Source: Bacteroidota bacterium
Lineage (GTDB): Bacteria; Bacteroidota; Bacteroidia; NS11-12g; UBA955
Length of the DNA: 39,044 nt
NCBI GenBank assembly: GCA_009918425.1
Contig: RGEC01000002.1
Coordinates: 1-39,044 of the forward strand
Direction: 5' to 3'
Position numbers and translations under genes: made by a program. Positions 1,516 through 25,239 of the stretch are shown piece by piece (positions within the stretch are counted from its first letter, which is position 1; every line of letters starts with the position of its first letter). The notes below the pieces were generated by a model. That model was not told the DNA's origin. It made no database searches and was given only the letters and a program-made list of their open reading frames with translations.

Positions 1516-1534
1516 TATTGTACTTTTTACAATA
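1516..1534. promoter_or_regulatory. Candidate operator, palindrome TATTGT-N7-ACAATA (copy 1), overlapping the -7 box
   Basis: The sequence is tattgt actttt t acaata. It extends to 7-bp arms, TATTGTA-ctttt-TACAATA. The right half overlaps TATATTTG at 1533-1540. Confidence 0.6.
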
Positions 1535-1540
1535 TATTTG
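1533..1540 (+). promoter_or_regulatory. Bacteroidota-type -7 promoter element TAnnTTTG for the regulator and glycan operon
   Basis: TATATTTG lies 11 nt upstream of the ATG at 1551. Confidence 0.45.
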
Positions 1541-1550
1541 CTTCACAGAG

Positions 1551-2246
1551 ATGAAAAATCAGCATAAAATTCTGAAACAGTATTTCAATGTTGCGGTATC
1601 AGTCGACAATGTAGTGTTCGGTTTTGATGCCGACGGATTGAAGGTGCTGCTCATTTCGCGTGGCTCGGAACCTTTTACCGGTTCCTGGGCCTTGCCCGGT
1701 GATTTGATTTCACCTGAAATGGACCTGGAATACTCAGCAGAAAAGGTATTGAAACAACTTACAGGTCTGGATCAGGTGTATATGGAACAAATACAGACAT
1801 TTGGCCGTGTTGACAGGCATCCTTTTGGCCGGGTATTTACCATTGCATATTTTGCCTTGATTAAGGTTGAAAATTATCAGCCCCATGCAAATTCATGGGC
1901 CAAAGATGTGGCCTGGTTTAAGGTGTCTGAAATACCTAAACTGCCTTTTGATCACCGTGAAATTTTAGAATATGCGCGCAAGCTTCTGAAAAACCGTATC
2001 CGTACACAGCCCTTGGTATTTGAATTGTTGCCGAAGTATTTTACGCTTACGGAAGTGCAGTTTATTCATGAATCTATTCTGGAGGAAGAATTTGATGTTA
2101 GAAATTTCAGAAAAAAAATTCTTTCAACCGGTATTATTGAGGAAACAGGTAGGTTACAGAAAAACGTAACTCACCGTCCGGCAAAGCTATACCGATATAA
2201 TGCCTCTAAGGCCAAGCAGCTCGGATTTGAAGGAGGGATGTTGTAG
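1551..2246 (+). CDS. Nudix-fold, NrtR/AraR-like transcriptional regulator (degenerate Nudix box plus C-terminal winged-helix region)
   Basis: Start taken at ATG 1551 (MKNQHK) rather than TTG 1518. The Nudix-like segment GDLISPEMDLEYSAEKVLKQLTGL keeps G-x5-E but has lost the REUxEE glutamates. The C-terminal roughly 90 aa look like a DNA-binding domain. Confidence 0.65.
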   Translation: MKNQHKILKQYFNVAVSVDNVVFGFDADGLKVLLISRGSEPFTGSWALPGDLISPEMDLEYSAEKVLKQLTGLDQVYMEQIQTFGRVDRHPFGRVFTIAYFALIKVENYQPHANSWAKDVAWFKVSEIPKLPFDHREILEYARKLLKNRIRTQPLVFELLPKYFTLTEVQFIHESILEEEFDVRNFRKKILSTGIIEETGRLQKNVTHRPAKLYRYNASKAKQLGFEGGML

Positions 2247-3601
2247 TGCGCTTTCCACTATTAATATTGGCAATGCTGTTGCTGGCAGGAGCCTTGAATG
2301 CTCAGCCCGCCAAAGTTATGGTAGTCAAACAAGGCGATAATTGGCGCCTGATGAAGAATGGGTATCCATATTATATTAAGGGCGCAGGTGGTACAGTGCA
2401 CCTGGATTTATTGGTAGAATGTGGTGGAAATACAATAAGGACCTGGGGTGTGGATGATGCCCAAAAAATATTGGATGAGGCACACAGTAAGGGATTAATG
2501 GTGATGTTGGGAATGTGGGTGCAACATGAACGGCATGGCTTTGACTACGACAATAACCTGGCGGTGCAGAAACAAATAAGGTATTTCAAAAGCATTGTGG
2601 ATCAGTTTAAAAATCACCCGGCCCTGCTGATGTGGGGTATAGGCAACGAGGTGGATTTGTTTTACCAGAACACCAAAGTGTGGCACAGCATACAGGCCAT
2701 TGCCAAATATATTCATGAGACGGACCCAAATCACCCTACCTGCACCGTTACTGCTGGATTAGACTCTCTGGAAGTGCAGCATATTAAAGAAAAAGCTCCC
2801 GATATCGATATTTATGGGGTTAATACCTATGGTGACATTGCCGGGGTGCCCAAAAATATTAAAAGGTTCGGCTGGGAAGGACCTTACATGATAACCGAAT
2901 GGGGACCCAATGGACATTGGGAATCGCCGGTAACCCCATGGAATGCGGCCATTGAGCAAAGCAGTAGCGAAAAGGCCATGGTTTATGGCGAACGTTATCA
3001 GAAATACATTCAGTCCGACAGCCAGCAATGTATAGGTTCCTATGTGTTTTTATGGGGCCAAAAGCAGGAGTATACCCTTACCTGGTATGGGCTTTTTACA
3101 AAAGACAACATGGCTACAGAGGCGGTAGACAGGCTGTATCAGGTTTGGACAGGCAAGCCACCAAAAACACCAACACCCACCATTTACCGAATGCTCATTA
3201 ATAATAAGGCAGCGTCTGAAGGCATTGTGCTTGACGCAGGTTCTGTTAATGCTGTTTCCCTGCATGCCGGACTTATTCACTACACCGAGACTGCGGCTCC
3301 GGATGGTGGTTACAAGGTGGTTTGGAAAATGCTGGCTGAAAGTGATGACAAAAAAGCGGGTGGCGACATGGAAAACGAGGCAGCTGAAATAACCCATTTT
3401 ATGAAAAAAGAAGGCGCCGGAACCATGCATTTTAAGGCTCCTCGGCAACCGGGGGGCTATCGGCTTTTTGCCATGGTATATTACCAAAACAAAGTTGCCT
3501 ACAACAACATTCCGTTCAAGGTGGTAGCCGCCTCCAGTGATGACAACAAAGGGGCTGTCAAATTCAAGAAGTTTAACATGGAATCATTCAGCGAGCAATG
3601 A
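2246..3601 (+). CDS. Secreted clan GH-A (beta/alpha)8 glycoside hydrolase with a C-terminal beta-sandwich-like domain, possibly a GH158-like beta-1,3-glucanase
   Basis: GTG start overlaps the regulator stop (TAGTG). Signal peptide MRFPLLILAMLLLAGALNAQ. The motifs WGIGNEVD (acid/base) and ITEWGP (nucleophile) have clan GH-A spacing. The family assignment is not verified. Confidence 0.6.
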   Translation: MRFPLLILAMLLLAGALNAQPAKVMVVKQGDNWRLMKNGYPYYIKGAGGTVHLDLLVECGGNTIRTWGVDDAQKILDEAHSKGLMVMLGMWVQHERHGFDYDNNLAVQKQIRYFKSIVDQFKNHPALLMWGIGNEVDLFYQNTKVWHSIQAIAKYIHETDPNHPTCTVTAGLDSLEVQHIKEKAPDIDIYGVNTYGDIAGVPKNIKRFGWEGPYMITEWGPNGHWESPVTPWNAAIEQSSSEKAMVYGERYQKYIQSDSQQCIGSYVFLWGQKQEYTLTWYGLFTKDNMATEAVDRLYQVWTGKPPKTPTPTIYRMLINNKAASEGIVLDAGSVNAVSLHAGLIHYTETAAPDGGYKVVWKMLAESDDKKAGGDMENEAAEITHFMKKEGAGTMHFKAPRQPGGYRLFAMVYYQNKVAYNNIPFKVVAASSDDNKGAVKFKKFNMESFSEQ

Positions 3602-5451
3602 GGGTAAACTTGTTTAAAATATTCATTCTACTGCCATTGTTGACCATTGTTGGCAAGGGGTTTTCCCAGGATACCGCTAAGCTGGCCAACACGCCGGGCA
3701 TTTTCCCAAAATCCCCCGCTGCTACTTTACAGCGCTTTCAGGTATCCGGTTATTACCGATTCATCACCAATGTACGTCATCTGCAGGAAGGCTACACAGA
3801 CCAGATGAAAACACCCTTCAATATTTTTGTGGGTGATGATAGCCAGATTCCACAACTGCTGCTGAACCTGGGTGGCAGTGTGGCGCCCAACACCCGGTTT
3901 TATACCGATTTTTATCTATGGAGTCCCATGATGGGAGGAGGAATGGTCGAAAATGTGAAAGGGCTTAACTTGGGGGTAAGCCTGACCGGAACCCACGACT
4001 TTGAGCACGGAACCCTGCAAGTTCAGACCGGGGGCATAAACTGGTACGCTCTCACGCCTTTTACTTTCCACTCTAATCCCGGTTTCAACCGATTTACTGT
4101 TTTTGAACGCAACCCCTGGGATCCCATGACCCGAAATGCCATAGACCGCTATCAGACCTTTTACCAAACCGGCGCCATGAATCAGGATACACGTTGGGGA
4201 AGGCAGGCATTTCAGGGTATAATACTGGATGCAAGCAATCTGCCAAACGGATTTTCAGGTACCATGATGTTTGGCAAAACACAGCTAAACGGGGGTATGT
4301 CTCCATTACCCAACCAAAGTGTTGGAGGAAAAATAAGAAACGGCAACGAAAATCGTTATATCAGCTTTAATACATTCAATAATCAGACCTGGTCCGACTC
4401 ATTGCTCAGCAGCCGAATGGGCTTTTCTATTCACACCATGGAGTTTACTTGGAAGAAAAACGGCTGGAAAATGTATGGTGAGACCGGCTTAGGAAAATAT
4501 TACAGTAAAGTTTACAATAAGGGCTGGGGAGAAGCTGTTTCCCTGAAATTGGATATCCCAAATAGAATTTTGTCTCTGCCCGTGCAGATACATTATTTCA
4601 GAATCAGCCCGAAAGTTATCAATAACAGCAGTGTTTTCTGGAACTCGTCCATTCTGGAAGGCAACAACACAGGTGCCGGAAGCGAAGCTCAGCTTGTACT
4701 TGCACCGTTTTCAAGCTCTATGGTTCCAGTAGGCCAGCTAACAAATAACCGCACAGGGGTAGAATTAAACACTGAAACATCGATAGGCCCTTTAAAAGTT
4801 AATGCTGGCTACACAGTGGCCAAAGAGCTGGAACGTATAGCCACCCAGATTACGTATGCCCATCCGGTCAACAATTTGGCTGTATCCAGGTTCTGGCGGT
4901 GGGCATTCCCTTCAGGTGTGGGCCCCTATGCCAATCTCACCAAAGTGTATCGTGGGGTTTTTGAATCGGTAGATATATTGGATGTTGATGCGCAGGATAA
5001 ACCCATGAAAGACAAATATTTCAATACGGCCGAATTGCAGATGAAATACAAAACGCGTTTTCTGGGCAGAGACCTCTTTGTTAATTACCTGGGAAACTAT
5101 GCTTCGGTGCAGCATTTTATGGCTCCTTTCACCGTGCTAACCGAAAAAGCCTACCTCAGAACCTATTATCACCAGTTGGAGGCCTACCTGAGACTCTCGC
5201 AGAATCTGGTATGGTGTAATTATGCCGGGGCTGAGCGTGTGGTAGCCAATTACGATACCCGAACGGATGCCATTAGCCGCAGGCCTAAGAATCAGGAAGG
5301 GTATGCCATTGCCACCGGTTTTGACATTGAAATGAGCAAAGGTGCCGGTTTATACATAAGACAGCGTAAAATGCAGTACCGAGATCGCAGTTATAGCAAG
5401 GATCGTTACAAGGGCTGGGAAACTACCGTTGAACTTAAAATATTCTTTTGA
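3598..5451 (+). CDS. Predicted plug-less outer-membrane beta-barrel protein, uncharacterised family (OMP-A)
   Basis: ATGA overlap with the upstream gene and a signal peptide ending GFSQ. The sequence is rich in alternating aromatic/polar and Gly-containing stretches. It ends in ELKIFF (terminal Phe). No TonB box or plug-like segment is visible. Confidence 0.55.
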   Translation: MRVNLFKIFILLPLLTIVGKGFSQDTAKLANTPGIFPKSPAATLQRFQVSGYYRFITNVRHLQEGYTDQMKTPFNIFVGDDSQIPQLLLNLGGSVAPNTRFYTDFYLWSPMMGGGMVENVKGLNLGVSLTGTHDFEHGTLQVQTGGINWYALTPFTFHSNPGFNRFTVFERNPWDPMTRNAIDRYQTFYQTGAMNQDTRWGRQAFQGIILDASNLPNGFSGTMMFGKTQLNGGMSPLPNQSVGGKIRNGNENRYISFNTFNNQTWSDSLLSSRMGFSIHTMEFTWKKNGWKMYGETGLGKYYSKVYNKGWGEAVSLKLDIPNRILSLPVQIHYFRISPKVINNSSVFWNSSILEGNNTGAGSEAQLVLAPFSSSMVPVGQLTNNRTGVELNTETSIGPLKVNAGYTVAKELERIATQITYAHPVNNLAVSRFWRWAFPSGVGPYANLTKVYRGVFESVDILDVDAQDKPMKDKYFNTAELQMKYKTRFLGRDLFVNYLGNYASVQHFMAPFTVLTEKAYLRTYYHQLEAYLRLSQNLVWCNYAGAERVVANYDTRTDAISRRPKNQEGYAIATGFDIEMSKGAGLYIRQRKMQYRDRSYSKDRYKGWETTVELKIFF

Positions 5452-7178
5452 TGAAATATAGCATGATACATATTGCAAAAAATATAATAGTGTTACTGTT
5501 CGGAATACCCGGACTGATAATTGCTCAAAGCACCCCAAAATTTTCTGTAACAGGCGGTGCACGTTCTCTTTTATCCAACGCTGAAATTTCGGTTAAAGAC
5601 AGTGTTCCGGATAATGTAACTGCCAGAAAAAATGCCGGTGGATACGCTTTGATGGATTTGGGTTTCAATATCAGGCCCAACCAGAACACCGAAATTATGG
5701 GTATGATCCGCATAAACAATAGGTTTGGTGGATTCTGGGGTGCAGGGGTATCCTTTGATGTAAGACAATTGTGGCTAAAGGGTATCATTGCCGATCGGGT
5801 TCGTTATCAGCTGGGAGATATCAACCTGAAGCAAACCCCATTTACTTTCTGGAACCACGATGAGGATAACCGCATTCAGTTGCCCGCGGTATTTGGCTTG
5901 CAAAGAGATATTGTAAATTATGAGACATTTTATGTTCCCAATACCTGGAGGCAGCAGGGGGCAGCCATGAATTTTGGGCTGGAATCGGGTAAAATGAAGT
6001 CTGAATGGAATTTTCATTCCTACCTCAATCGTTTGAATGCCACCAATTTTGGAAGTCAGCCGGAAAGACTGCATTTTGGAAGCACCGCAAACTGGATTTT
6101 TCATAAAAATCTGACAGTGGCCTATAACCTAAGCCGTGTTTTTGATGTAAAAGAAACCGCACTTAGCAATATTCGCTTTCAAAACACTGTGAATACTGCC
6201 TCTTGGGAATATAATCAATTGTTGAAAGGCCGGCTGATAACCCTGGGCGGAGAGGCGGGTAATTCTTCTTACCGCTGGTTGCAGGATACTGCTGCGCCAC
6301 ACCTCCAGGATTATTTTGTGCATGCTTTTCTTCGCATAGGCAATAAAGAAAAACACTGGTCTGTAGAAGGAGGTTACCTAAATGTGGGACCGGATTTCAG
6401 AAGTGTTGCTGCGCAGTCAAAAAGACTGGATGTGGGTGCGCAGCCTATGTTTTATAATAGGTACACCCAATTGCAGCTCGATAGACCCTTGAATCTGCTG
6501 GATTACACAACCAACACAGCATTGTTTAGAAACGGCATCAGTACCAAGCTACAGGCGTACAATCCCATACTCAACAATGTGATGCCCTATGGTATGGCTA
6601 CATTTAACCGATCGGGATTGTATATGAAATCCAAATGGCAACATACCAAAAAAATTGTGACCGCAGAAGTACAATATTACAAACTGTCTGAAATATTGGG
6701 GCAGGGTACCTCGGAACTAAAAAAATTCAGAATGACACAGGCCCATTTGAACTGGGATATAGGTAAAATGTTAGGCTATAAAAAGCAATGGAAACTTCAG
6801 GTATCTGCCTGCCAGCAGCAGACCCTCCGCAACAGCACAAGGAATTATGAAGTTGTAAAATTAAATTCGATGCAGTTGGGTGCCGGGATGGAATCCGAAA
6901 TCATGAGCAGCATTGACATCTTGGCGGGGTATACCATGTTACAGGGTAAGGGCAATGAAATGCTTGCCGCAAGAAATGGCTACACAGAAGTAATCGACTT
7001 CACGGGATACAACGCAAACCTGCAAAACAATGCTGCTGCTGCCGGACTCAGGGTTCGATTCAGCAACAAAACCTACCTTTCTCTGCTGTATCAGCGTATG
7101 AATTACCGCAACCTATTACAGCCCTATCAGAATTATACAATCGGTCAGTTTCAGGCCATATACAACATGACTTTTTAA
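5448..7178 (+). CDS. Predicted plug-less outer-membrane beta-barrel protein, distant paralogue of OMP-A (OMP-B)
   Basis: ATGA overlap with OMP-A and a signal peptide ending IIAQS. It ends in IYNMTF. It shares the motif (L/Q)TPFTF with OMP-A (nt about 4054-4068 and 5835-5849). Confidence 0.55.
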   Translation: MMKYSMIHIAKNIIVLLFGIPGLIIAQSTPKFSVTGGARSLLSNAEISVKDSVPDNVTARKNAGGYALMDLGFNIRPNQNTEIMGMIRINNRFGGFWGAGVSFDVRQLWLKGIIADRVRYQLGDINLKQTPFTFWNHDEDNRIQLPAVFGLQRDIVNYETFYVPNTWRQQGAAMNFGLESGKMKSEWNFHSYLNRLNATNFGSQPERLHFGSTANWIFHKNLTVAYNLSRVFDVKETALSNIRFQNTVNTASWEYNQLLKGRLITLGGEAGNSSYRWLQDTAAPHLQDYFVHAFLRIGNKEKHWSVEGGYLNVGPDFRSVAAQSKRLDVGAQPMFYNRYTQLQLDRPLNLLDYTTNTALFRNGISTKLQAYNPILNNVMPYGMATFNRSGLYMKSKWQHTKKIVTAEVQYYKLSEILGQGTSELKKFRMTQAHLNWDIGKMLGYKKQWKLQVSACQQQTLRNSTRNYEVVKLNSMQLGAGMESEIMSSIDILAGYTMLQGKGNEMLAARNGYTEVIDFTGYNANLQNNAAAAGLRVRFSNKTYLSLLYQRMNYRNLLQPYQNYTIGQFQAIYNMTF

Positions 7179-7181
7179 AAT

Positions 7182-8180
7182 ATGAAATCAATACTCAGTA
7201 TATTCATCGGCATTGTTTTGTTTACATCTTGTAAGCGAGACAATAACCAGTTCGAAGGCCCCAGCCTGCAGGATCTTAACGGCCCGTTTGGCATGGTAAA
7301 ACCATTTACTGCCAGCAAAACAGCAGTGGATTTTTCCAAAGGGGAAATTGTAACCTTTGCAGCCGAGTTTACCAAGCAGTGCAACTGGACCATAACCATC
7401 TATGGAGATCTGAGCAAGGCACGTAAAATCATTACCGGTAAATCCCGGCAGATAGATGCCGTAAATGGAATCTGGAATGGCACAACTACTGTGCTTCCTG
7501 CTTTCAGAACAGAGCCTTGCCGCGCTGTACTTAAAATTGATGGAGTAACAGATAGTTTCACCTTGAATATCGGTATCAATGGGTTACGAATACCCCAGGG
7601 ATTGATGATTGCAGACTTTGAAGCCGGACTTAGTCCTAAATGGAACACATTCATACAATCGGGGGCCAATATGGATTTTAAGGTGAAAAGTGATGCCTTT
7701 TCGGTGAAGGGAAATTACCTGAATATGGCAGGCACCGTGACGTGGGACTGGCTTATCGGCCTGATAGATTTTCCGGCATCGGCATATGGAGCAAATACGT
7801 TTACAGTAAGCAATATTCCTGAAGATGTGTATTTCAATTGTCTTATTTATGGCGATCCCAATGTAGCAAATCCCAGCAGGGTTCTGTTTCAGTTTAAGGA
7901 AGATGATAACAGCAACAATGTTTTTGATGTTGCAGCGGATGATCAGTTTGACAAAGAAATTATTGTGAATTGGCAGGGATGGAAACTCGTATCCTTTAAA
8001 TACAGCGATTTGATTCACCTGGTGAATGGGCAGCCCGCTCCTAACAATGGCAATAATCGACATAACCCCAATCGTGTGGTGACCATTTCTATGCTGCACC
8101 TAGCGAATCCGTCCATGGGTGCCGGGAGCACAAAAATCGATTACCTTATTTTTACTGAGAAAACGCCCCTGGAACTGTAA
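7182..8180 (+). CDS. Lipoprotein with an Ig-like N-terminal part and a CBM-like C-terminal domain (putative surface glycan-binding protein)
   Basis: Lipobox VLFTSC. The C-terminal segment runs from IADFEAGLSPKWNTF to STKIDYLIF, which is typical of jelly-roll CBM or CIA30-like modules. Confidence 0.5.
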   Translation: MKSILSIFIGIVLFTSCKRDNNQFEGPSLQDLNGPFGMVKPFTASKTAVDFSKGEIVTFAAEFTKQCNWTITIYGDLSKARKIITGKSRQIDAVNGIWNGTTTVLPAFRTEPCRAVLKIDGVTDSFTLNIGINGLRIPQGLMIADFEAGLSPKWNTFIQSGANMDFKVKSDAFSVKGNYLNMAGTVTWDWLIGLIDFPASAYGANTFTVSNIPEDVYFNCLIYGDPNVANPSRVLFQFKEDDNSNNVFDVAADDQFDKEIIVNWQGWKLVSFKYSDLIHLVNGQPAPNNGNNRHNPNRVVTISMLHLANPSMGAGSTKIDYLIFTEKTPLEL

Positions 8181-8866
8181 TGAAATATCCTTTTTTAATG
8201 GGGATCTTGCTGTGTGCTGCAGCTTCGGCTTCAGGCCAGAATACAGCTGTAGATAACATGGATACGGTTCAGATTACCGGAAACAAGTTGCGGTTTAAAA
8301 AACAGCAGTTATATGATGAGTCAAACGGTTCGGTACCCGCTCAAATCGGCGGGTTTAGTGCATTGGGTGTTTTTGATGAATCAATGGGTTCTGAAGTATG
8401 GTTTTCCAAAGAAAAGGCATGCGTATCGGTAAGTAAATCTGACCGTCTTCCCTATACAGGTCAATTTTGTCTGCACGCCCAATGGGATAAAATTGCAGGT
8501 GGCTGCAAGTGGATTGGGATGGGCATTGGCTGGGACAACTGGCAACCCAAGGATATTTCTTCGATCGTGGATTCAGCTGCCATACAAATAATGTTGCGTT
8601 CTGAAACCGACACCCTGAAAACCCTGCCGCTCGCTCTGGCCTTGGAAGATTACACAGGAGCCCAGTGTTTTATCGGCTTTTCACCCCGTTATCTGATGGG
8701 CAATAAAATCATGCCCGGGGGCTGGACCGCGGCCATTATACCGCTGTCTGAGTTTCCGTTTGAAAGGTTTAATGCCAGTGCTGCCATGATCAAACAGTTT
8801 ATCATACAGTTTGAGGCAGACGGCAATGTATATATGGATGATATTCGTTTAATCCGAAAAAAGTAG
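8180..8866 (+). CDS. Secreted CBM-like (jelly-roll) protein
   Basis: TAATG overlap with the upstream gene and a signal peptide. It has a Trp-rich core (WIGMGIGWDNWQP) and a C-terminal FEADGNVYMDDIRLI, typical of CBM11/CIA30-like domains. Confidence 0.45.
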   Translation: MKYPFLMGILLCAAASASGQNTAVDNMDTVQITGNKLRFKKQQLYDESNGSVPAQIGGFSALGVFDESMGSEVWFSKEKACVSVSKSDRLPYTGQFCLHAQWDKIAGGCKWIGMGIGWDNWQPKDISSIVDSAAIQIMLRSETDTLKTLPLALALEDYTGAQCFIGFSPRYLMGNKIMPGGWTAAIIPLSEFPFERFNASAAMIKQFIIQFEADGNVYMDDIRLIRKK

Positions 8867-8870
8867 GTCA

Positions 8871-11120
8871 ATGAAAAACCCTCTAAGTATAGGTTTAACC
8901 TGTTTTCTTATTGTATTTAATACAATAAATGCGCAAACACCCATAGAAAAGAAGGCAGATTCCCTGCTTTCAGTCATGAATATTGAAGCAAAAATCGGTC
9001 AGATGTCTCAAATCGACCTGGGTGTACTGTGCAAAGGAAAAATTTGTGAATTGCAGGATCCCCTTGCACTTGACACGGCCAAATTGCGACTGGCATTCAG
9101 CAAATACAAGGTGGGCTCTGTGTTAAACTGCGGTTGCGGTTTTCATGCCCTTGCGCGTGAGCGCTGGATCAGTATTATTGACAGCATACAGCAGGCAAAC
9201 CGCCTGTTTGCGGGCCATGATATACCCGTGCTGTATGGTATAGATGCGATTCATGGTGCCAACTATACCATCGGGGCTACCTTGTTTCCTCAGCAGATAG
9301 GACAGGCAGCCACATGGAATCCGGATCTGGTGAAGGCTGCTGCAAAGATTACGGCTTACGAAACGCGTGCTTCGGGCATCCCCTGGAATTTTTCACCGGT
9401 GCTGGATTTGGCCCGACAGCCGCTCTGGTCGAGGTTTTTTGAAACCTATGGGGAAGACGTTTATCTGGCAACCCGCATGACAACAGCCTGTATCGAAGGA
9501 TACCAGGGAGAAAAAATAGGAGAATTGCAGGTAGCTGCCTGTATGAAACATTTTTTGGGCTATAGCTATCCGCTGAGTGGTAAAGATAGAACCCCCGCCT
9601 GGATTGGTGACCGCGAACTTAGGGCATACTTTCTGCCCACCTTTCAGGAGGCCATTCGCCTAAAGGCCAAGACAGTGATGATCAATTCCGGTGAAATTAA
9701 TGGTACGCCCGTTCACGCAAACCCCAAAATTTTAACAGGGCTGCTTCGCGATGAGCTGGGTTTTGACGGGGTGGCCGTCACGGACTGGGAAGACATTTAT
9801 AAACTGCATACCCTGCACCGTGTGGCCCCTTCATTGCGCGATGCTGTTAAAATGGCGGTTATGGCCGGTATAGACATGAGCATGACCCCTAATGATTTTC
9901 AGTTTAATGAACTGTTGCTGAATCTGGTAAAATCGGGGGAAGTGCCAGAAAGTCGAATCGATGTTTCTGTGAAAAGAATTCTGAAACTCAAGCTGGAGCT
10001 GGGCATTGAAAAATGGGACGCCGATTATGTCCGTAACTATTATCCGATTTTTGCATCGCCTGATTTTGCGTCGGTAGCAACGGCAACTGTTTCAGAATCT
10101 CTGACCCTGCTGAAAAATGAACTCCGTAATACCACTTCAGATGAGGCGGTGTTGCCATTAAAACAGCAGGACAAGGTTCTGGTTTTTGGGAATGCTGCCA
10201 ACAGCATAAAAATGCTGAACGGGGCCTGGTCACAAACCTGGCTGGGTCAGGATGAAAGGTATGTAGATTCAACCAAACCTACCATTTTATCGGCATTAAA
10301 ATTTTTGGCAACAGATAAAATTATTTTTGCCAATGCAGCTGATCCGAAATCGTGCAGGCGTGCACTCAAAAGTAAGCCAAGTGTGGCGATTTTGTGTCTG
10401 GGCGAAACCCCTGCCACAGAAATTCCCGGAAACATCAATCAACTTGAATTGCCTGTAGATGAAAACACGCGAAATCTGGCAAAGCAGCTAAAGGCCATGA
10501 ATGTGCCTGTGGTATTGGTTTTGTGCCTTGGTCGTCCCCGCATCATTACCGAGTGGGCTGAAGCCGCATCCGCCGTCTTGCACACCTACCTTCCAGGCCA
10601 CGAAGCAGCGCCGGTCATTGCGTCTGTTTTGTATGGGAATATCAATCCTTCCGGAAAATTGCCGTTTACCTACCCCCGATACTGCGGTGATATTGTACAT
10701 TATGACCATAAGCGTACCGAAGACAATGATGTGAATTTTGGGGATAAAGGCTACAATCCTTTGTATGATTTTGGTTTCGGCCTGTCTTATACCCGCTTTC
10801 AATATTCAGATCTGCAAGTGAAGGCAGCGAAAGACACTTTTTTCATTAGTGTTATGGTGAAAAATACAGGAAGTAGGGCCGGGAAGGAAGTTGTGCAGGT
10901 GTATTACCGCGATGAATATGCAGCCGTGACACCTTCCGTAAAGAAACTTTGCGGGTTTATGAAAATATATGCAACAGCAGGCGAAACAAAAAGGGTACGG
11001 TTCGCTATACCTGCAATGCAACTTGGAGATATCGGTGCCGATTTGAAGCCCTTTAGGGCAGAAGGGGAATTGAAGTTTTTTATCGGAACGGAAACAAAAC
11101 AAATACAATACAATCCATGA
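8871..11120 (+). CDS. Glycoside hydrolase family 3 beta-glucosidase
   Basis: Signal peptide plus the motifs KHFLGYS and GFDGVAVTDWEDI (GH3 nucleophile region). The length of 749 aa includes a C-terminal FnIII-like domain. Confidence 0.9.
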   Translation: MKNPLSIGLTCFLIVFNTINAQTPIEKKADSLLSVMNIEAKIGQMSQIDLGVLCKGKICELQDPLALDTAKLRLAFSKYKVGSVLNCGCGFHALARERWISIIDSIQQANRLFAGHDIPVLYGIDAIHGANYTIGATLFPQQIGQAATWNPDLVKAAAKITAYETRASGIPWNFSPVLDLARQPLWSRFFETYGEDVYLATRMTTACIEGYQGEKIGELQVAACMKHFLGYSYPLSGKDRTPAWIGDRELRAYFLPTFQEAIRLKAKTVMINSGEINGTPVHANPKILTGLLRDELGFDGVAVTDWEDIYKLHTLHRVAPSLRDAVKMAVMAGIDMSMTPNDFQFNELLLNLVKSGEVPESRIDVSVKRILKLKLELGIEKWDADYVRNYYPIFASPDFASVATATVSESLTLLKNELRNTTSDEAVLPLKQQDKVLVFGNAANSIKMLNGAWSQTWLGQDERYVDSTKPTILSALKFLATDKIIFANAADPKSCRRALKSKPSVAILCLGETPATEIPGNINQLELPVDENTRNLAKQLKAMNVPVVLVLCLGRPRIITEWAEAASAVLHTYLPGHEAAPVIASVLYGNINPSGKLPFTYPRYCGDIVHYDHKRTEDNDVNFGDKGYNPLYDFGFGLSYTRFQYSDLQVKAAKDTFFISVMVKNTGSRAGKEVVQVYYRDEYAAVTPSVKKLCGFMKIYATAGETKRVRFAIPAMQLGDIGADLKPFRAEGELKFFIGTETKQIQYNP
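8909..8927. promoter_or_regulatory. Candidate operator, palindrome TATTGT-N7-ACAATA (copy 2), inside the signal-peptide codons of the GH3 gene
   Basis: The sequence is tattgt atttaat acaata. It extends to TATTGTA-tttaa-TACAATA. Confidence 0.45.
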
Positions 11121-11968
11121 GCATGTTCAAGTCAACATCAATAATTACCACAGCAGGATTGCTGTTATTGGGATTAATTACAACCTGTAAGCAATCAGAT
11201 CCACCAACTACCCGCAACCGAATAATACGTGATTCCGGCGATTTTGTGTTTTCGGGATATGGGTGGAATATTAAGTCAAGTATTACACCGGTAGGGCCCG
11301 GGCCTAACTACTTTAATGGAAGTGACAGTATGGTCTGGGTGGATAAGGATGGGCTATTGCATTTGCGTATTGCTTATATCAACGGGAAATGGCAAAGCAG
11401 TGAAGTGATTTGCACGGAAAATATGGGCTATGGAACCTATGTGTTTTGCCTTGAAAGCAATGTGGCGAATATCAATGAACGGATAGTACTGGGTTTGTTT
11501 ACCTGGGATGACAATTCTTTCAAAGAGCAGGCCAACAGTGAAGTGGATATTGAATTCTCAAAGTGGTTTAAGGCCAGTGACAGCCTGACATTGACTTATT
11601 CTGTTCAGCCGGTAATATTCGATAATCCTATAGCTTACAGTGAGCGTTCCTTCAAACCCCAGATGCAGGTGGCTAAGCTAAAGCAACCCAGTACACATGT
11701 ATTTAACTGGCAGGCCGACGAAATAACCTGGAATTCATACACAGGTGCTGTTTATCCGGGTGGCAATCCCATTGCTTCTTGGAATTTTAACCTGAATAAC
11801 CCTGTAAGAACCAAAATAGAAGGTGGACGTGTATCAAATCCCATTATTATACCTGCGCCCGGCGCCACTACCCGCGCCAGAATGAATCTGTGGTTATTGA
11901 ATGGATTACCCCCATCAGATGGTAAACCATTCGAGGTAGTTGTTCGCTCGTTTGAATACATTCCGTAA
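11117..11968 (+). CDS. GH16-like beta-glucanase lipoprotein
   Basis: ATGA overlap with GH3 and lipobox LITTC. The motif SEVDIEFS matches the GH16 catalytic E-x-D-x-E. Its size of about 280 aa fits a single jelly-roll domain. Confidence 0.55.
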   Translation: MSMFKSTSIITTAGLLLLGLITTCKQSDPPTTRNRIIRDSGDFVFSGYGWNIKSSITPVGPGPNYFNGSDSMVWVDKDGLLHLRIAYINGKWQSSEVICTENMGYGTYVFCLESNVANINERIVLGLFTWDDNSFKEQANSEVDIEFSKWFKASDSLTLTYSVQPVIFDNPIAYSERSFKPQMQVAKLKQPSTHVFNWQADEITWNSYTGAVYPGGNPIASWNFNLNNPVRTKIEGGRVSNPIIIPAPGATTRARMNLWLLNGLPPSDGKPFEVVVRSFEYIP

Positions 11969-11976
11969 ACAAAAAA

Positions 11977-11993
11977 GGAGGCACATGGCCTCC
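11977..11993. terminator. Bidirectional terminator hairpin between convergent genes
   Basis: Stem ggaggc and gcctcc with loop acatg, flanked by an A-run upstream and ctcttt downstream. Confidence 0.55.
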
Positions 11994-12021
11994 CTCTTTG
12001 TATATCAAACCAAATGATTTT

Positions 12022-13686
12022 TTACTTGTTGAGAATGATCTGTTCGCGGTAGGTTTGTTCACCTGCAGTGATTACCAGCATATAAACACCGGCTTTTAAT
12101 GCGCCCATGTCTATGGTTGTATTCACAGCATTGCCGGTGAAGGCTGATCCGTAAACTTTTTGGCCAAGAATGTCGCTAATGCTTATGTTTCCGGATACGC
12201 CTGAATTGAACACTGCAGATACGCTGATATTTGACTGAGCAGGATTGGGATATACACTGATTCCATGAGTGCTCAATGGTGTATTGCCCATGCTTTGGCA
12301 GGTTCCGCAATATTCCCAGCAAAAAGCGGGCAGGGTTGTATCGGCCTTTGCAGTAAGCAATCGATTGGTGAAGCTGCCGGTAGTTTTGGTGCAGCTTTCG
12401 CCACCTTTGAAAGTTTCTTTCACTGCCCATCCGTCAAGTGTAAATAAATATTCAAAAGTATCAAGTGCATTCAAGGGAAGACTGATTTCGTATATTTTAT
12501 CATTGTCGGCGTCTGTCATGGGATTGCAGGTGCCGCACCAGCCATTGAATGAACCGTTTAGGTTTACTGCAGTGAAAGTGTTTTTATAGGAACTCATATC
12601 TACTTTGAAAGTCACATTGGCTTTAGGCTTGGTGTTGGCGCAACTTTCGCATGATTCAAAACAAACTGCATTCAAAACAGTAGCACCGTTGATTTTGAGG
12701 AAACGATTGGTGTAAATACCGGTAGTTTTTGTACAGGAAGATCCGGATTTCATTTTTTCTGCCACATTCCAGCCGTCCAGGGTAAATAGGTATTCGATAG
12801 AATCCTGAGGTAGGGGCAGTTTCACTTCCCAAACACCATTTTTGTCTGCATCATCCATAGGGTTACAGTTACCGCACCATCCGTTGAAAGAGCCATTTAC
12901 GTATACAGTGGTAAAGGATCCACCTGTGTATTTGCTCATATCTACCTTGAAGGTTACATCGTTGGTACACTCGCTGCAACTACCCCAGCATACATTAGGA
13001 AGAACCTTGGAGCCGGTAACTTTCAGGAAGCGATTGGTGTAGCCCCCTGTGGTTTTGGTGCAGGTGCTGCCGGAAGTTAGTTTTTCATCACCTGCCCAGT
13101 TGTCAATAGAGAATTTGTATTCTATCGAGTCGCGGGTAATGTCGAAAGTACCCGAATAAATTTTATCGCCATCTGCATCGGTAAGCTGATTGCTGTTGCC
13201 GGACCAACCATTAAAATCACCGCTAACATACACATTGGTGTATGAACCTGAATACTGTTTCATGTTAACATTAAAAGTGATTGATTTTTTGGTAACCGAA
13301 GAACAAGCTGCACAGCTTTCAAAACAGACCTTAGCCAGTGTCACATCACCGGTCAGTTTTACAAAACGGTTGGTATAACCGCTTGTGGTTTTGGTGCATG
13401 ATGATCCTTGAGTAAGGTTTTCCTGCTTGCTCCAGTTATCCATGGTAAATTTATACTCAATGGAGTCATCGGTAATGTTGATTGTGCCTTCCCAAACACC
13501 ATCTGCATCAGCATCACTAAGCGCATTGGAATTGCCGGACCAGCTGTTGAAATTGCCACTCACGTAAACGGTAGTAAAGGAACCACCGGTAAACTGATTC
13601 ATGTCTACCTTAAAGGTTACTTTCTTTTGAGCCATCAAGCCGCCCAATGAAGCGACCATGAGCATCAGAGTAAATATTTTTTTCAT
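12022..13686 (-). CDS. T9SS-secreted protein with four tandem roughly 110-aa carbohydrate-binding-like (CBM20/48 or E-set-like) Cys-containing modules
   Basis: Start moved to MKKIFTL (ATG at 13684-13686). There are four repeats of VTFKVDM..VYVSGNFNGW..DADGD..EYKF..D.W..SCTKTT..YTNRF..C.ESC..C. The C-terminus, ISVYPNPAQSNISVS...GVYMLVI...IILNK, resembles a T9SS sorting domain. Confidence 0.8.
   Translation of the reverse strand: MKKIFTLMLMVASLGGLMAQKKVTFKVDMNQFTGGSFTTVYVSGNFNSWSGNSNALSDADADGVWEGTINITDDSIEYKFTMDNWSKQENLTQGSSCTKTTSGYTNRFVKLTGDVTLAKVCFESCAACSSVTKKSITFNVNMKQYSGSYTNVYVSGDFNGWSGNSNQLTDADGDKIYSGTFDITRDSIEYKFSIDNWAGDEKLTSGSTCTKTTGGYTNRFLKVTGSKVLPNVCWGSCSECTNDVTFKVDMSKYTGGSFTTVYVNGSFNGWCGNCNPMDDADKNGVWEVKLPLPQDSIEYLFTLDGWNVAEKMKSGSSCTKTTGIYTNRFLKINGATVLNAVCFESCESCANTKPKANVTFKVDMSSYKNTFTAVNLNGSFNGWCGTCNPMTDADNDKIYEISLPLNALDTFEYLFTLDGWAVKETFKGGESCTKTTGSFTNRLLTAKADTTLPAFCWEYCGTCQSMGNTPLSTHGISVYPNPAQSNISVSAVFNSGVSGNISISDILGQKVYGSAFTGNAVNTTIDMGALKAGVYMLVITAGEQTYREQIILNK
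12291..13626 (-). repeat. Four tandem coding repeats of about 330 bp inside the T9SS protein gene
   Basis: Repeat boundaries were read from the translation and are approximate. Confidence 0.7.
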
Positions 13687-13710
13687 TTTCAAAAGATAAT
13701 TAGTTAACAA

Positions 13711-13718
13711 CAAAGATA
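13711..13718 (-). promoter_or_regulatory. -7 promoter element (TATCTTTG on the minus strand) for the T9SS repeat-protein gene
   Basis: The plus strand reads CAAAGATA, about 25 nt upstream of the ATG at 13686. Confidence 0.4.
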
Positions 13719-13731
13719 TAGGAAATATTCA

Positions 13732-13773
13732 TATTGTAAAAAAAACAATAAGAATATTGTTAAACTTACAATA
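13732..13773. promoter_or_regulatory. Two tandem perfect TATTGT-N7-ACAATA palindromes (copies 3 and 4) upstream of the T9SS repeat-protein gene
   Basis: Copy 3 is tattgt aaaaaaa acaata (13732-13750). Copy 4 is tattgt taaactt acaata (13755-13773). A third pair with a 13-nt spacer lies at 13788-13812. Confidence 0.6.
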
Positions 13774-13851
13774 AGTAAATCATAAATTATTGTTTAGGTG
13801 TTCATAACAATATGAATATCAATAAAATAAATTAAAAGCATAAAAAAATAT

Positions 13852-13870
13852 TTTGCGGTCTTTCCGCAAA
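13852..13870 (-). terminator. Rho-independent terminator after the TonB-receptor/DUF4249 operon
   Basis: Stem tttgcgg and ccgcaaa with loop tcttt. On the minus strand it is followed by a T-rich run. Confidence 0.6.
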
Positions 13871-13918
13871 TGAGCTTCGTTGTGTAACAATTTTAGGATA
13901 TCCTTGCTACAAAAAAGA

Positions 13919-14821
13919 TTAGCGTTTTAATACAAATGATCTGAAGTCTGCCGTGTACGACCCAACCACCCCAAACGCTCCTGGCACATTTCCCATTATT
14001 TTACCCGGAAGCTGACTAATGCTCTGTTGTTGCCAGATGTGGGCATTGCGGGTGTTGTAGAAATTGAACAGGGATTTGCTGATATTTTCCAGGTGAAATT
14101 CAATACTTACAGGCCTTTCAGCAGGGGTTTTCAGCAGCGGGTCTGAAGTATATAAAACCATATATTTATTAACCCCGTTGAAGGTAGCATCAGAGAAAAG
14201 CAATTCTCTTGAACTGTAATTGTTGTAATCATTGTCTGTTGCAGCCAGGTCATCCGAATAGAGGGAAATAATATCTTTTTGCAGGAAGCTGTCCGATAAC
14301 TTACCCGTATAATCATATATATACCTGTAGGCTGTTTTATAGAGGTAGCAGCGATAATAGTTTTCAAAAGCGGCATCATCATCAAACCTCACGGCTACTG
14401 AAAAAGCGCGGCCTATGCCGGGTATAAGTTGTCGTATTGTATCAAAATTTTTAATAAAAACTTGCTTGGGTATAATTTCTGATATATCAAATTTGTAGCC
14501 GTTCACATAGCCCCTGAAAACAAAGGTGTCGCCTGATTTCAGGGAGTTGGAACCAAACAGGTGAATACCGTTTCCGGTATATATGGTGGTATCTTTGGTT
14601 GTATTTGATTTTATTATTGAGAAAAATGCATTGCCTATGGGCATGTCTTTGCTGCCAAAGGGCGCGGTAAGCCTGCAGTCTGCAGTTAAAATACTGTCTG
14701 GGGTAATGAAGCAATGCACTGCAGGTAATGGCGTTTTCAGGTAATCAGAATTGTACGGAATTTCTTTTATGCATCCGCATAAAATCAACACGCTTGCAGT
14801 ATAAAATACGAGGATTCTCAA
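13919..14821 (-). CDS. DUF4249-like lipoprotein, partner of the upstream TonB-dependent receptor
   Basis: Lipobox LILCGC and a 4-nt overlap with the receptor gene. This is the typical receptor/DUF4249 pairing in Bacteroidota. Confidence 0.6.
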   Translation of the reverse strand: MRILVFYTASVLILCGCIKEIPYNSDYLKTPLPAVHCFITPDSILTADCRLTAPFGSKDMPIGNAFFSIIKSNTTKDTTIYTGNGIHLFGSNSLKSGDTFVFRGYVNGYKFDISEIIPKQVFIKNFDTIRQLIPGIGRAFSVAVRFDDDAAFENYYRCYLYKTAYRYIYDYTGKLSDSFLQKDIISLYSDDLAATDNDYNNYSSRELLFSDATFNGVNKYMVLYTSDPLLKTPAERPVSIEFHLENISKSLFNFYNTRNAHIWQQQSISQLPGKIMGNVPGAFGVVGSYTADFRSFVLKR

Positions 14822-17454
14822 AAGGTTATTTTATAACTGATATTGGGTAATAAAGGCAACATACTTACCTGATAAAGTTTACGGTTGCCCAGTTTATCAA
14901 AGCCGGGGTTGATATAGAAAGGATTAAACCGGTTGTATACATTGAATACGCCCATAGTCCAGTATCTCACATATCCTTTTCTCTGTTTCTGAAGGGTAAT
15001 GCTGATATCCAGACGGTGATTGTCGGCTGCGCGGGCGTTGTTACGGTTGCCGTATATGAAAATATCGCGGTAGGGATCGTTTGGGGTGGGTGAGCTGTAT
15101 GTGGCTACCGGCAAGGTGTAGGCAAATCCACTATTGAAGGTCCATGCGGCATTGATGTCTATATTGGGTTTCCAATGGTAAACGCCGGCAAGGTATATAT
15201 TGTGTCTTCTATCGTAGCGTGCAGGAAAAGAGAGCCCGTTGTTTAAATCTGCAAACCATCGGTTGTTCCACATGAGGGTGTAGGATATCCAGCCGTTAAG
15301 CTTTCCGGCAGTTTTTTCTGCCAGCACTTCCAGGCCGTAGGCCTCGCCGTTTCCTGATGTTACAGCATCTTCCCAGTTTTTTCCTGAAGTGACATATCCT
15401 GCATTGTCCTTATATTCCAGTATATGGTTGAAACTGCGGTAAAATACATCTGTGCTGAAAGACCATGAAGGCCTGCTTTGGGCATAGCCGAGACTAAGCT
15501 GATCGGCCCGGCCCGGCTGAAACTGTCGATTGCTGGGCACCCAGATATCGCCGGGAAGACCTAGACTAAGGTTATTCAGCAGGTGAAAAAACTGACGGTT
15601 ACGGGTGGCTGAGGCGTGAAGAAACTGGTTTTCTTTCAGGCGATATTTAATATTAAGCCGGGGTTCAGGCAAAACAAAATAGTAAGGCTCCGGCAATCTA
15701 AAGCTGCCCAGCCGCAGGCCGGCAGCTCCTATCCATCGCCGTTTGCCGTTGTACTGAAACTCCGTGTAGGTGAAGTACTCCGGCACATTGAGCCGTGCGT
15801 CGTTATACACAAGATCGCTCTCTGTTTTATTGATGCGGCTATACTGTTTTCTGTTTCCAGGAATAAACCTGTGGTTGGCTATTCCGAACCCCTGTTCCCA
15901 CACCAGTCCCGGTTTGATGCGCATCCGCAGTTCCCAGGCGGCTTCCATGTCCTGAATTCCATTTTCCAGTTCATATCGGGTGTAGTCATCGACATCGGTT
16001 TGCGGACTTATCTTGCTTTCTCTTCGAAATGAAAATTCACGGCTGTACTCATAGCGATAGCGCGTAATATGTGCTCTAAGCAACCACTCGAGGCCTGTTC
16101 GTGCCTGATAGTTCCATTTGATGCCGGCCACACGGTTACCCCAGCCTGTTAACTGCTTTTTGCGCTCCTCCGTGCTTATTTCAAGTTGTTCATTTTTAGA
16201 ATATTCTATTAGTCCGCCAATATCCTGGCCGCCATAAAAACCTGCACTGATTCTACTTTTGCTGTTAAATCTGTGTGTAATGCGGGTATTTAGGTCCCAG
16301 AAATAATAGAGATTATTGGGATTTATGCTGTCGCTGAGGTTGAGAAATGAGGCGGCCTGTCCTGCCAGAAAATCGATGTAGCTGCGGCGCATGGACAAAG
16401 TGAAGGTAGTGCGGTCTTTCCTGATGGGTCCTTCCAGAAAAACGCGCCCTGAGAGTAAACCTACATTGGCAATGCCACTGAGTTTTTGGCGGTTCCCCTC
16501 CTTGCTTTGTACCGAAATTACACTGCTTAGGCGTCCACCGTATCGGGCAGGAAAACTACCTTTCAGCAACCGTGCTGAGCGAAGTGCATCATCGTTAAAT
16601 ACCGAAAAAACACCAAAAAGGTGGTAACTGTTAAATACGGGCATATCATCCAGCAGCACCAGGTTCTGATCTGCGGCACCGCCGCGAACATACATACCCA
16701 GCATGCCTTCACTTCCACCCACTACACCGGGCAGCATGCTTAGGGTGCGCACTACATCCGGCTCTCCCAGCAACTGGGGCATCCACCCAAGGCGAATTCG
16801 GTTCATTTCGTGCTGGTCGGTCTGGCCCTGAACTACAGACTGTAAACCACGTCCTTTCAGCGCCTGTATTTGCACAGCATCCAGGGTTGTGCTTTGTTTC
16901 AGCATTTCATACTGCAGGTTGTAGTCACGGTCAACAATTAGCGTATCAATTATGGGGTTGTAACCCGGATAGGTAATTTGCAGTATATTTTTTCCTGCAG
17001 GAAGCAACAGGCTAAAAAAGCCGGCGTCTGAGGTTGTTGTCATGTATGGCTTTTTGGCGGTTCCCACGGTGGCAGCACCTATAAATTCTCCATTGCCCGC
17101 AGATAAAATTCTCCCTGAAATGCGGTAACCTGTTTCTATGTTCTGCGGAAGCCGTTTTTTTAGAAAAATCTGACCGTTTTCAAATTCATACCGCAATCCT
17201 GCAGCAGCCAAAAAATCTTGCAGTGCCTGAGAAGCACGCACCTGATTGTAGCGGAAACTGAATTTTTTATCAGCAGACGGGGCCAGGGAAGCGTCGTATT
17301 GAAAAGGAAGGCCAATGCGTTGTTCAAATCCGGCTAAGGCTGTTTGAAAAGACACCGAAACAGCCGTGTAACTTATGTTTTGGGAAAGACCTCTATCTTG
17401 TGCATTAATGGTGCACATAAGCAGGTAAGCAAACAAAAGTACGGAGCCTCTCAC
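14818..17454 (-). CDS. TonB-dependent receptor with STN, carboxypeptidase-regulatory-like, plug and barrel regions
   Basis: GTG start. The STN-like segment is ASQALQDFLAAAGLRYEFENGQIFLKK. The CarboxypepD_reg-like segment is YRISGRILSAGNGEFIGAATV. The plug motif is LGEPDVVRTLSMLPGV. The C-terminus is ISYKITF. Confidence 0.85.
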   Translation of the reverse strand: MRGSVLLFAYLLMCTINAQDRGLSQNISYTAVSVSFQTALAGFEQRIGLPFQYDASLAPSADKKFSFRYNQVRASQALQDFLAAAGLRYEFENGQIFLKKRLPQNIETGYRISGRILSAGNGEFIGAATVGTAKKPYMTTTSDAGFFSLLLPAGKNILQITYPGYNPIIDTLIVDRDYNLQYEMLKQSTTLDAVQIQALKGRGLQSVVQGQTDQHEMNRIRLGWMPQLLGEPDVVRTLSMLPGVVGGSEGMLGMYVRGGAADQNLVLLDDMPVFNSYHLFGVFSVFNDDALRSARLLKGSFPARYGGRLSSVISVQSKEGNRQKLSGIANVGLLSGRVFLEGPIRKDRTTFTLSMRRSYIDFLAGQAASFLNLSDSINPNNLYYFWDLNTRITHRFNSKSRISAGFYGGQDIGGLIEYSKNEQLEISTEERKKQLTGWGNRVAGIKWNYQARTGLEWLLRAHITRYRYEYSREFSFRRESKISPQTDVDDYTRYELENGIQDMEAAWELRMRIKPGLVWEQGFGIANHRFIPGNRKQYSRINKTESDLVYNDARLNVPEYFTYTEFQYNGKRRWIGAAGLRLGSFRLPEPYYFVLPEPRLNIKYRLKENQFLHASATRNRQFFHLLNNLSLGLPGDIWVPSNRQFQPGRADQLSLGYAQSRPSWSFSTDVFYRSFNHILEYKDNAGYVTSGKNWEDAVTSGNGEAYGLEVLAEKTAGKLNGWISYTLMWNNRWFADLNNGLSFPARYDRRHNIYLAGVYHWKPNIDINAAWTFNSGFAYTLPVATYSSPTPNDPYRDIFIYGNRNNARAADNHRLDISITLQKQRKGYVRYWTMGVFNVYNRFNPFYINPGFDKLGNRKLYQVSMLPLLPNISYKITF

Positions 17455-18816: not shown

Positions 18817-18821
18817 GTGGG

Positions 18822-22113: not shown

Positions 22114-22163
22114 GCGGTTACCAAATTTAGTGAAAAAGCATGATAATTTCAAACCGGCAGCCA

Positions 22164-25061: not shown

Positions 25062-25239
25062 AGGTTGTTTGAATGAGTAGTGAAACACGAAACTATTGTA
25101 TTTAGCACAAACAACCATAGCATTTCAAAAAATAATGTTTCGGGCACAACACGGCAGATGGTTGCAACGCCATGAATTAGTTGGCATCGGTTTACACAGC
25201 TACCTTTCAGTTATCCTGATGGAATAAGCTACTTAATAC

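Follow-up and report, generated by a model that had tools for sequence, protein, structure and literature searches.

The NrtR family is already known to include sugar-responsive repressors of Bacteroidetes that deal with arabinose and xylose and have 21-bp, often tandem operators. BtAraR (BT0354) of Bacteroides thetaiotaomicron is an NrtR-family repressor that responds to L-arabinose and binds a 21-bp semipalindromic operator, which also occurs as tandem sites 24 bp apart; the proven operators have the form GTGT-N7-ACAC, as read from the oligonucleotides used, and the release of BtAraR from DNA by L-arabinose raises the expression of the operon (PMC4666351). Structures of this protein are available (PDB 5bs6, 5dd4, 5ddg and 5deq), and in the co-crystal the TGT core is read by Asn181 and Lys184, with Arg180 intercalated at the TG step and Lys179 in contact with the G that begins GTGT, while side chains fill the nucleotide cleft (PMC4666351). 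The other characterized NrtR proteins were also described as repressors (PMC4666351), and for the pentose-linked NrtR regulators of Bacteroidetes the prediction was local repression that responds to sugars, exerted from palindromic sites at the operon of the regulator itself (PMC2330246, PMC3878776). A membrane-spanning one-component regulator, BguR, is known from laminarin polysaccharide utilization loci (PULs) of marine Bacteroidota (bioRxiv 10.64898/2026.01.10.698779). Here we describe a 39,044-nt stretch of a Bacteroidota contig (RGEC01000002.1; the whole stretch is called the window below), in which four copies of the palindrome TATTGT-N7-ACAATA accompany a gene for a regulator related to BtAraR (1551-2246), the glycan operon that this gene opens, and a convergent gene for a secreted protein with carbohydrate-binding module (CBM) repeats of family CBM48. 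We propose that the palindrome is the operator of this NrtR/AraR-family regulator, which would repress the operon and the CBM48 gene when its sugar effector is absent, and from the sequence comparisons presented below we put the probability of this reading at about 85%.

An exact search of the window found four copies of TATTGT-N7-ACAATA (1516-1534, 8909-8927, 13732-13750 and 13755-13773) and no others, in line with an earlier note on this DNA that had listed four perfect 19-bp copies. Base composition predicted 0.005 copies in the window, in agreement with the value of ~0.004 given in that note, and the motif was absent from all 100 dinucleotide-preserving shuffles of the window. The window contains 18 TATTGT hexamers, of which four were paired with ACAATA at N7; any other spacing was seen at most once. 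Chance origin of the four palindromes is excluded. The extended form of the palindrome, a-TATTGTA-N5-TACAATA-t, is 21 bp long. Inspection of the surroundings confirmed the placement of the copies described earlier: the right arm of the first overlaps a −7 box, the second lies within the first 20 codons of the GH3 glycoside hydrolase (GH) gene, at codons 13-19, and the third and fourth stand in tandem upstream of the −7 box of the CBM48 gene, whose product is predicted to be sorted by the type IX secretion system (T9SS). The features needed for the argument are given below, with scores from a weight matrix built from the regulator-promoter sites.

1516-1534, unstranded: operator O1, TATTGTACTTTTTACAATA, the putative primary autoregulatory operator; exact match, matrix score 31.8.
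1533-1540, + strand: −7 box TATATTTG of the Bacteroidota type, overlapping the right arm of O1 and lying 10 nt before the ATG at 1551; read in the sequence, predicted promoter element.
1551-2246, + strand: NrtR/AraR-family regulator with a degenerate Nudix domain, a winged helix and the recognition helix DVRNFRKK; Pfam and PDB matches, helix conservation.
5471-5489, unstranded: TATTGC-N7-ATAATA, a putative decayed internal operator at the start of the gene for a 575-aa protein; two mismatches, matrix score 10.7.
8909-8927, unstranded: operator O2, putative, within the signal-peptide codons of the GH3 gene; exact match, matrix score 27.3.
12022-13686, − strand: secreted protein in which four CBM48-like repeats are combined with a C-terminal domain for T9SS sorting; Pfam CBM_48 (four stretches) and Por_Secre_tail.
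13711-13718, − strand: −7 box TATCTTTG, predicted promoter element of the CBM48 gene; read in the sequence.
13732-13750, unstranded: operator O3, putative, the promoter-proximal member of the tandem pair; exact match, matrix score 19.9.
13755-13773, unstranded: operator O4, putative, the distal member of the tandem pair, 23 bp from O3; exact match, matrix score 19.4.

The product of 1551-2246 contains a Nudix domain at residues 20-140 and a winged helix at residues 156-215, the latter scoring 84.5 bits against a cutoff of 27 (Pfam E-values of 5.7e-24 for NrtR_WHD, 8e-13 for AraR_C and 1.5e-7 for NUDIX). Its best PDB match was BtAraR (5bs6, E 4.9e-49), with 38% identity over 204 aligned positions, and the protein could be aligned end to end with the structures of BtAraR and of Shewanella oneidensis NrtR. 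These matches bear out the earlier description of the gene as coding for an NrtR-like Nudix regulator. The Nudix signature GX5EX7REUXEEXGU is impaired at residues 50-72, GDLISPEMDLEYSAEKVLKQLTG, where RE is replaced by EK and EE by KQ, and the protein reached 155 bits, below the cutoff of 400, for the ADP-ribose NrtR equivalog (NCBIfam NF050029). The sugar hydrogen-bond triad of BtAraR (R34, R86 and H131) is retained as R37, R89 and H135, as are the arabinose-pocket residues G47, V92 and F129, while F36 is replaced by S, G48 by D, F49 by L and G89 by F. With F36, G48 and F49 changed, no araMPRDAB genes found in the window, and operator arms of the form TTGT/ACAA, not GTGT-N7-ACAC, the regulator falls outside the AraR orthologous group. 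The Nudix and winged-helix fusion, the impaired signature and the ~21-bp palindrome conserved at its own promoter all agree with the NrtR family, to which we assign the protein, closest to the sugar-sensing AraR/XylR branch. Because its nearest relatives belong to that branch, an ADP-ribose-like ligand, which had been listed among the candidate effectors, is unlikely.

The comparison with BtAraR extends from the protein to the DNA that it reads. Both regulators have the same two-domain architecture with an inactive Nudix signature, both have a 21-bp operator with a TGT-N7-ACA core and tandem sites at similar spacing (24 bp for BtAraR and 23 bp in the window), and both are encoded inside a sugar-utilization operon. 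Arg180, Asn181 and Lys184 of BtAraR are all present in the window regulator (KRNFRK in BtAraR and VRNFRK in the window), whereas the pair formed by Lys179 and the G of GTGT is replaced by Val and T at the same base. In keeping with this, the operator arms read (A/G)GTGT/ACAC(C/T) for BtAraR and TATTGT/ACAATA in the window. The Arg/Arg/His sugar triad is shared, yet the two proteins are only 38% identical, and their targets differ, being ara genes for BtAraR but GH158 and GH3 β-glucan genes and a T9SS-secreted CBM protein in the window, where putative extra operators inside coding regions are a further difference. BtXylR (BT0791) and the other pentose-linked regulators of Bacteroidetes fall in the same family branch as the window regulator (PMC2330246, PMC3878776), but BtXylR-type regulons serve xylose and arabinose catabolism, in contrast to the β-glucan regulon proposed here. 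Canonical NrtR proteins (Shewanella oneidensis and Synechocystis), which respond to ADP-ribose and control nicotinamide adenine dinucleotide (NAD) metabolism, also combine a winged helix-turn-helix and a Nudix-like domain with a palindromic operator, whereas the proposed regulon in the window comprises glycoside hydrolases, outer-membrane proteins and the CBM protein and no NAD genes. BguR controls β-glucan loci that hold GH158, GH3 and GH16-type enzymes, and GH158 and GH3 are also present in the window locus; however, BguR is an unrelated type of regulator tied to SusCD PULs, in contrast to the NrtR-type, SusCD-less arrangement of the window.

The comparison set consisted of 91 related loci (L001-L091). 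In 25 of them the regulator is 57-97% identical to that of the window, several of these 25 being repeat contigs of the same lineages, and 23 had the palindrome 27-46 bp upstream of the regulator start; most of these copies were exact, with one- or two-base arm variants in L020, L021 and L025. The arms of the regulator-promoter site were invariant and its spacers variable, and the flanks had diverged among orthologues. In homologues of ~50-55% identity, mostly from Saprospiraceae and carrying a DKRNFRK helix, the palindrome was replaced by related but different ones, such as TTGGTGT-N7-ACAATAA or AGTGTA-N5-TACACT. Recognition helix and bases covaried: among distinct operators, all 7 of those found with Val-type proteins had TTGT in each arm, and 23 of the 26 found with Lys-type proteins had GTGT in one arm or both. 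This covariation and the phylogenetic footprint constitute the strongest in silico evidence that the regulator reads the palindromes and, together with co-occurrence and the match to the BtAraR core, they support the proposal of the earlier note that the palindrome is the operator of the adjacent regulator. In L032-L087 (Saprospiraceae and Lewinellaceae, ~50-53% identity, DKRNFRK), the asymmetric TTGGTGT-N7-ACAATAA stands ~40-140 bp upstream of the regulator gene, and this asymmetric operator suggests that the residue at the position of Lys179 encodes specificity throughout the family.

Several observations weigh against the proposed role of the palindrome. In the window clade the −7 box is only 10 nt from the ATG, implying a nearly leaderless mRNA, and a −33 TTTG at the canonical distance was not found in this clade, which leaves the promoter assignment less secure than in L022-L024 and L005. 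The orthologue L017 has no upstream site, and L026 and L031 (54-55% identity, DTRNFRK helix) keep the operon with no recognizable site. The intragenic copy O2 has no obvious promoter partner, and its conservation is confined to four closely related lineages, with coding constraint also acting. Finally, CBM48 modules are classically α-glucan binders, which is odd beside a β-1,3-glucan operon.

The doubt about O2 leads to the alternative that this copy merely reflects the coding of a signal peptide with AT-rich codons while the other three copies are real, a possibility that we take seriously although we judge it the less likely account of the site. O2 encodes L-I-V-F-N-T-I in codons 13-19 of the GH3 signal peptide; L008, L088 and L089 share it at these codons, the GH3 genes of L009, L018, L090 and all 60-68% identical orthologues lack it, and no promoter box lies near 8909. 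However, the four synonymous positions of the O2 arms are identical in all four carrier lineages, which represent two distinct site sequences. In addition, ~five distinct internal positions scoring at least 17 were found in ~70 kb of operon sequence (orthologous copies counted once); by comparison, 54 kb of neighboring DNA held no position with a score of 12 or more, and 300 operon shuffles held no position with 17 or more. Each clade operon carries 1-3 strong internal sites: the counterpart of the 5471 site is perfect at the start of the 575-aa gene in L008 (23.4), L088 (23.9) and L089 (23.6), and other clade members have strong sites elsewhere in this gene. We read the internal sites as putative auxiliary operators that were gained and lost between lineages.

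Among the three weaker variants that the earlier note had added to the perfect copies, the one at 5471-5489 is upheld by its perfect counterparts in these three relatives, and the other two were dropped. TATTGT-N13-ACAATA at 13788-13812 is present and adjoins the tandem operators on their distal side, but it is not conserved in the relatives L088-L090 and its spacing is unfit for the N7 dimer geometry; the variant at 25094-25112 has a matrix score below 8 and no support. We also rejected two one-mismatch matches, at 7227 and 33272, both scoring below 8, the first of which is lipobox coding sequence, and a weak match in the gene for a 617-aa protein (4501; 4788 in L008 and 12954 in L009), which lies over the codons of the conserved peptide YYSKxYNKGWGE and probably reflects coding constraint.

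The location of the sites at promoters bears on the direction of control. Orthologues of the regulator gene have a TATATT(T/C)G or TATACTTG −7 box directly after the palindrome, and in L022-L024 and L005 the elements TTTG-N20/21-TAnnTTTG bracket the operator, which therefore fills the gap between −33 and −7. The palindrome abutting a conserved −7 box (TAtaTT(T/C)G or TAtaCTTG) fits promoter occlusion, and thus supports the autoregulation by occlusion that had been proposed for this regulator. Alternatively, the regulator might activate transcription, or both activate and repress, if only at the O3/O4 pair upstream of the CBM48 gene, since O4 is well upstream of the −33 region, a position also used by activators. 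We consider this improbable: O1 overlaps the −7 box, the site lies exactly between the −33 and −7 elements in several orthologues, and at the promoters of T9SS genes 6-16 nt separate the end of the proximal site from the −7 box. Moreover, the release of BtAraR by its effector raises expression, and the other characterized NrtR proteins are repressors.

A matrix scan addressed whether the sites are confined to this regulon. In 54 kb of DNA outside the operon from the window clade it found no match scoring at least 12, and in the remaining 25 kb of the window one weak match (12.7 at 21040), inside a Kelch-repeat gene. The more distant loci, 861 kb in all, gave nine matches scoring at least 15, eight of them just upstream of a homologous regulator gene, so that in the sequence scanned the motif does not occur at similar density in unrelated coding DNA, the outcome that would have spoken against the operator. 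These data also argue against the palindromes being bound by a different transcription factor, such as a global carbon regulator, with the NrtR-like gene merely adjacent. Such a factor is very unlikely because of the covariation between helix and bases: the site co-occurs with the regulator gene in many lineages and changes when the recognition helix changes, its core and spacing match the operator in the AraR co-crystal, and unrelated flanking DNA carries no sites. That the repeats act through nucleic-acid structure (as hairpins, terminators or elements like repetitive extragenic palindromes) and not as protein-binding sites is hardly credible and was rejected, for although the palindromes can fold (−3.8 and −5.5 kcal/mol for single sites, −9.6 to −12.6 kcal/mol for the tandem pair), the single-site hairpins are weak, the stems are short, AT-rich and not followed by a T-run, the sites belong to promoters and precede the predicted transcription starts, sequence variation falls in the spacers and spares the arms, and the family is not dispersed elsewhere.

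The operon predicted to be under the control of O1 comprises eight genes in the order regulator, GH158, 617-aa, 575-aa, 332-aa, 228-aa, GH3 and 283-aa. This full order is kept in many Bacteroidota assemblies, and reduced forms (regulator-GH-GH3 or regulator-GH3) also occur. The genes downstream of the regulator are as follows.

2246-3601, + strand: GH158 glycoside hydrolase, a TIM barrel of a β-1,3-glucanase family; PDB 9oro, E 4.6e-95, also 6pal.
3598-5451, + strand: 617-aa outer-membrane β-barrel of an uncharacterized family; AlphaFold2 model, no family match.
5451-7178, + strand: 575-aa second putative β-barrel outer-membrane protein; C-terminal Phe, signal peptide, weak OMP_b-brl match (E 0.018).
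7182-8180, + strand: 332-aa lipoprotein of no family, a candidate surface glycan-binding protein; lipobox ...FTSC, conserved in the operon.
8180-8866, + strand: 228-aa secreted protein of no family; signal peptide, conserved in the operon.
8871-11120, + strand: GH3 β-glucosidase; Pfam GH3 N-terminal, C-terminal and Fn3-like domains, PDB BoGH3B 5jp0, E 1e-151.
11117-11968, + strand: 283-aa lipoprotein encoded by the final gene of the operon, whose E-V-D-I-E motif resembles that of GH16; read in the sequence, conserved at the operon end.

Neither Pfam (up to E 5) nor NCBIfam gave anything usable for the 617-, 575-, 332-, 228- and 283-aa proteins. The AlphaFold2 model of the 617-aa protein is a large all-β barrel (predicted local distance difference test, pLDDT, of 75; predicted template modeling score, pTM, of 0.77), for which Foldseek found only generic porin and TonB-dependent-receptor barrels at template modeling (TM) scores of at most 0.41. 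This protein has ~411 homologues, and the 120 listed are all unnamed or hypothetical. The 575-aa gene adjoins it in orthologous operons too, and both products end in Phe. The best NCBIfam match of GH3 was an exo-β-1,3/1,6-glucosidase, below its cutoff. The 283-aa protein matched nothing in Pfam, NCBIfam or the PDB sequences, and with the ExDxE motif as the one indication, its GH16-like activity is a lead that we do not claim. No SusC, SusD, Plug or TonB domain was detected in any operon product with Pfam and NCBIfam, and the operon is therefore not a canonical PUL; the place usually taken by SusC/SusD is occupied by the two family-less β-barrels (3598-7178). The SusCD-less glycan operon named in the earlier note is thereby confirmed and can be narrowed, from its enzyme families, to a GH158/GH3 locus for β-1,3-glucan. 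It is this cargo, a SusCD-less locus with two large β-barrels of uncharacterized family, that is the more unusual aspect of the system.

The second predicted target, the CBM48/T9SS gene, had no match among PDB sequences. Its TATCTTTG box lies upstream of the ATG at 13686, and O3 ends 13 nt from this box. In L088-L091 the gene is likewise convergent with the operon end, its −7 box is kept as TATCTTTG, TACCTTTG or TAAGTTTG, and a site ends 13-16 nt from the TAnnTTTG box; the tandem pair with its 23-bp spacing is found in L088, L089 and L090, and a single site in L091. Sites also recur in distant relatives. In L025, which has a 57% identical regulator, they precede a CBM48/T9SS gene and an operon for phosphofructokinase, aldehyde dehydrogenase and phosphoglucose isomerase (PFK-ALDH-PGI), and a half-variant precedes a major facilitator superfamily (MFS) transporter gene. 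These L025 sites (3560-3790, 8977-8995 and 9938-9956) have asymmetric arms (TATTGT...ACACTA) that match its Lys-type recognition helix. L029 has sites upstream of two genes whose products are T9SS-sorted. Both the conservation in L088-L091 and this recurrence support the suggested co-regulation of the operon with the convergent secreted repeat protein, and the glycolytic and transporter targets in L025 point to a regulon that may be centered on glucose.

Taken together, the data are consistent with the following mechanism. In the absence of the sugar effector, a regulator dimer would bind the palindrome through its winged-helix domains. On O1, which overlaps the −7 box, the dimer would repress the regulator and the whole eight-gene operon, that is, the β-1,3-glucan genes, while two dimers on O3/O4 would cover the −33 region of the convergent CBM48/T9SS gene promoter. 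The copy in GH3 and the decayed copy at the start of the 575-aa gene may serve as auxiliary intra-operon operators, acting as a roadblock or in internal control. A glucan-derived sugar entering the degenerate Nudix pocket would then rotate the DNA-binding domains as in BtAraR, and the DNA would be released. Our guess for the effector is glucose or a short β-gluco-oligosaccharide; a hexose or short gluco-oligosaccharide is suggested because the residues that pack against C4/C5 of arabinose, F36, F49 and G48, are replaced by the smaller or polar S, L and D, and because of the gene content. The motif statistics, the family assignment, the gene content and the conserved placement of the sites are direct results of the analysis; that the regulator binds this DNA, that it represses, which effector it senses and what the internal sites do are our inferences from them.

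A literature search for NrtR or Nudix regulators of laminarin, glucan or GH158 loci, partly crowded by unrelated Nudix papers, found none, nor did it return a hexose- or β-glucan-linked member of the NrtR family, and the BguR preprint makes no mention of Nudix/NrtR regulators (bioRxiv 10.64898/2026.01.10.698779). Tentatively, and with more doubt than confidence, the regulator could be the first hexose-sensing member of the NrtR/AraR group, responding to glucose or a laminari-oligosaccharide, and its regulon a new SusCD-independent system for the capture and uptake of β-1,3-glucan, made up of two β-barrel outer-membrane proteins, two family-less surface proteins and the T9SS-secreted CBM-repeat protein, with intragenic operators adding roadblock-type control. 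The locus as we read it would add β-glucan use in uncultured Bacteroidota to the range of the sugar-responsive NrtR/AraR branch, which is known from the pentose catabolism of gut Bacteroides, and it offers a precise operator and regulon that are open to testing. The natural specificity swap between Lys/G and Val/T informs how the NrtR family reads DNA, and the link of ~five family-less proteins, two of them large outer-membrane barrels, to β-1,3-glucan use would provide a route to their function. Many of the source assemblies are apparently from lake and river samples.

The DNA flanking the regulon is partly syntenic among relatives. Three tandem DUF1573 paralogues (30-1405, − strand) are divergent from the regulator gene, a location that they keep in L001, L008, L009 and L018; their promoter has no operator. 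Next to the CBM48 gene, a pair of genes for a CarbopepD_reg/Plug TonB-dependent-like receptor and a DUF4249 protein (13919-17454), syntenic in L088-L090, also has no operator, and a GC hairpin followed by a T-run (GCGG-TCTTT-CCGC, 13858-13872, − strand) after this pair separates it from the CBM48 promoter. The LD-carboxypeptidase (Peptidase_S66) region at 18820-19543 (− strand) holds two overlapping open reading frames in different frames (155 and 89 aa), compared to a single gene of 272-298 aa in L088-L090, and is likely the result of a frameshift, a pseudogene or an assembly error. The Kelch-repeat gene with the weak matrix match (20917-22164, − strand) lies between xseA and a 204-aa gene and is missing from the syntenic regions of L088-L090, and it appears to be a lineage-specific insertion.

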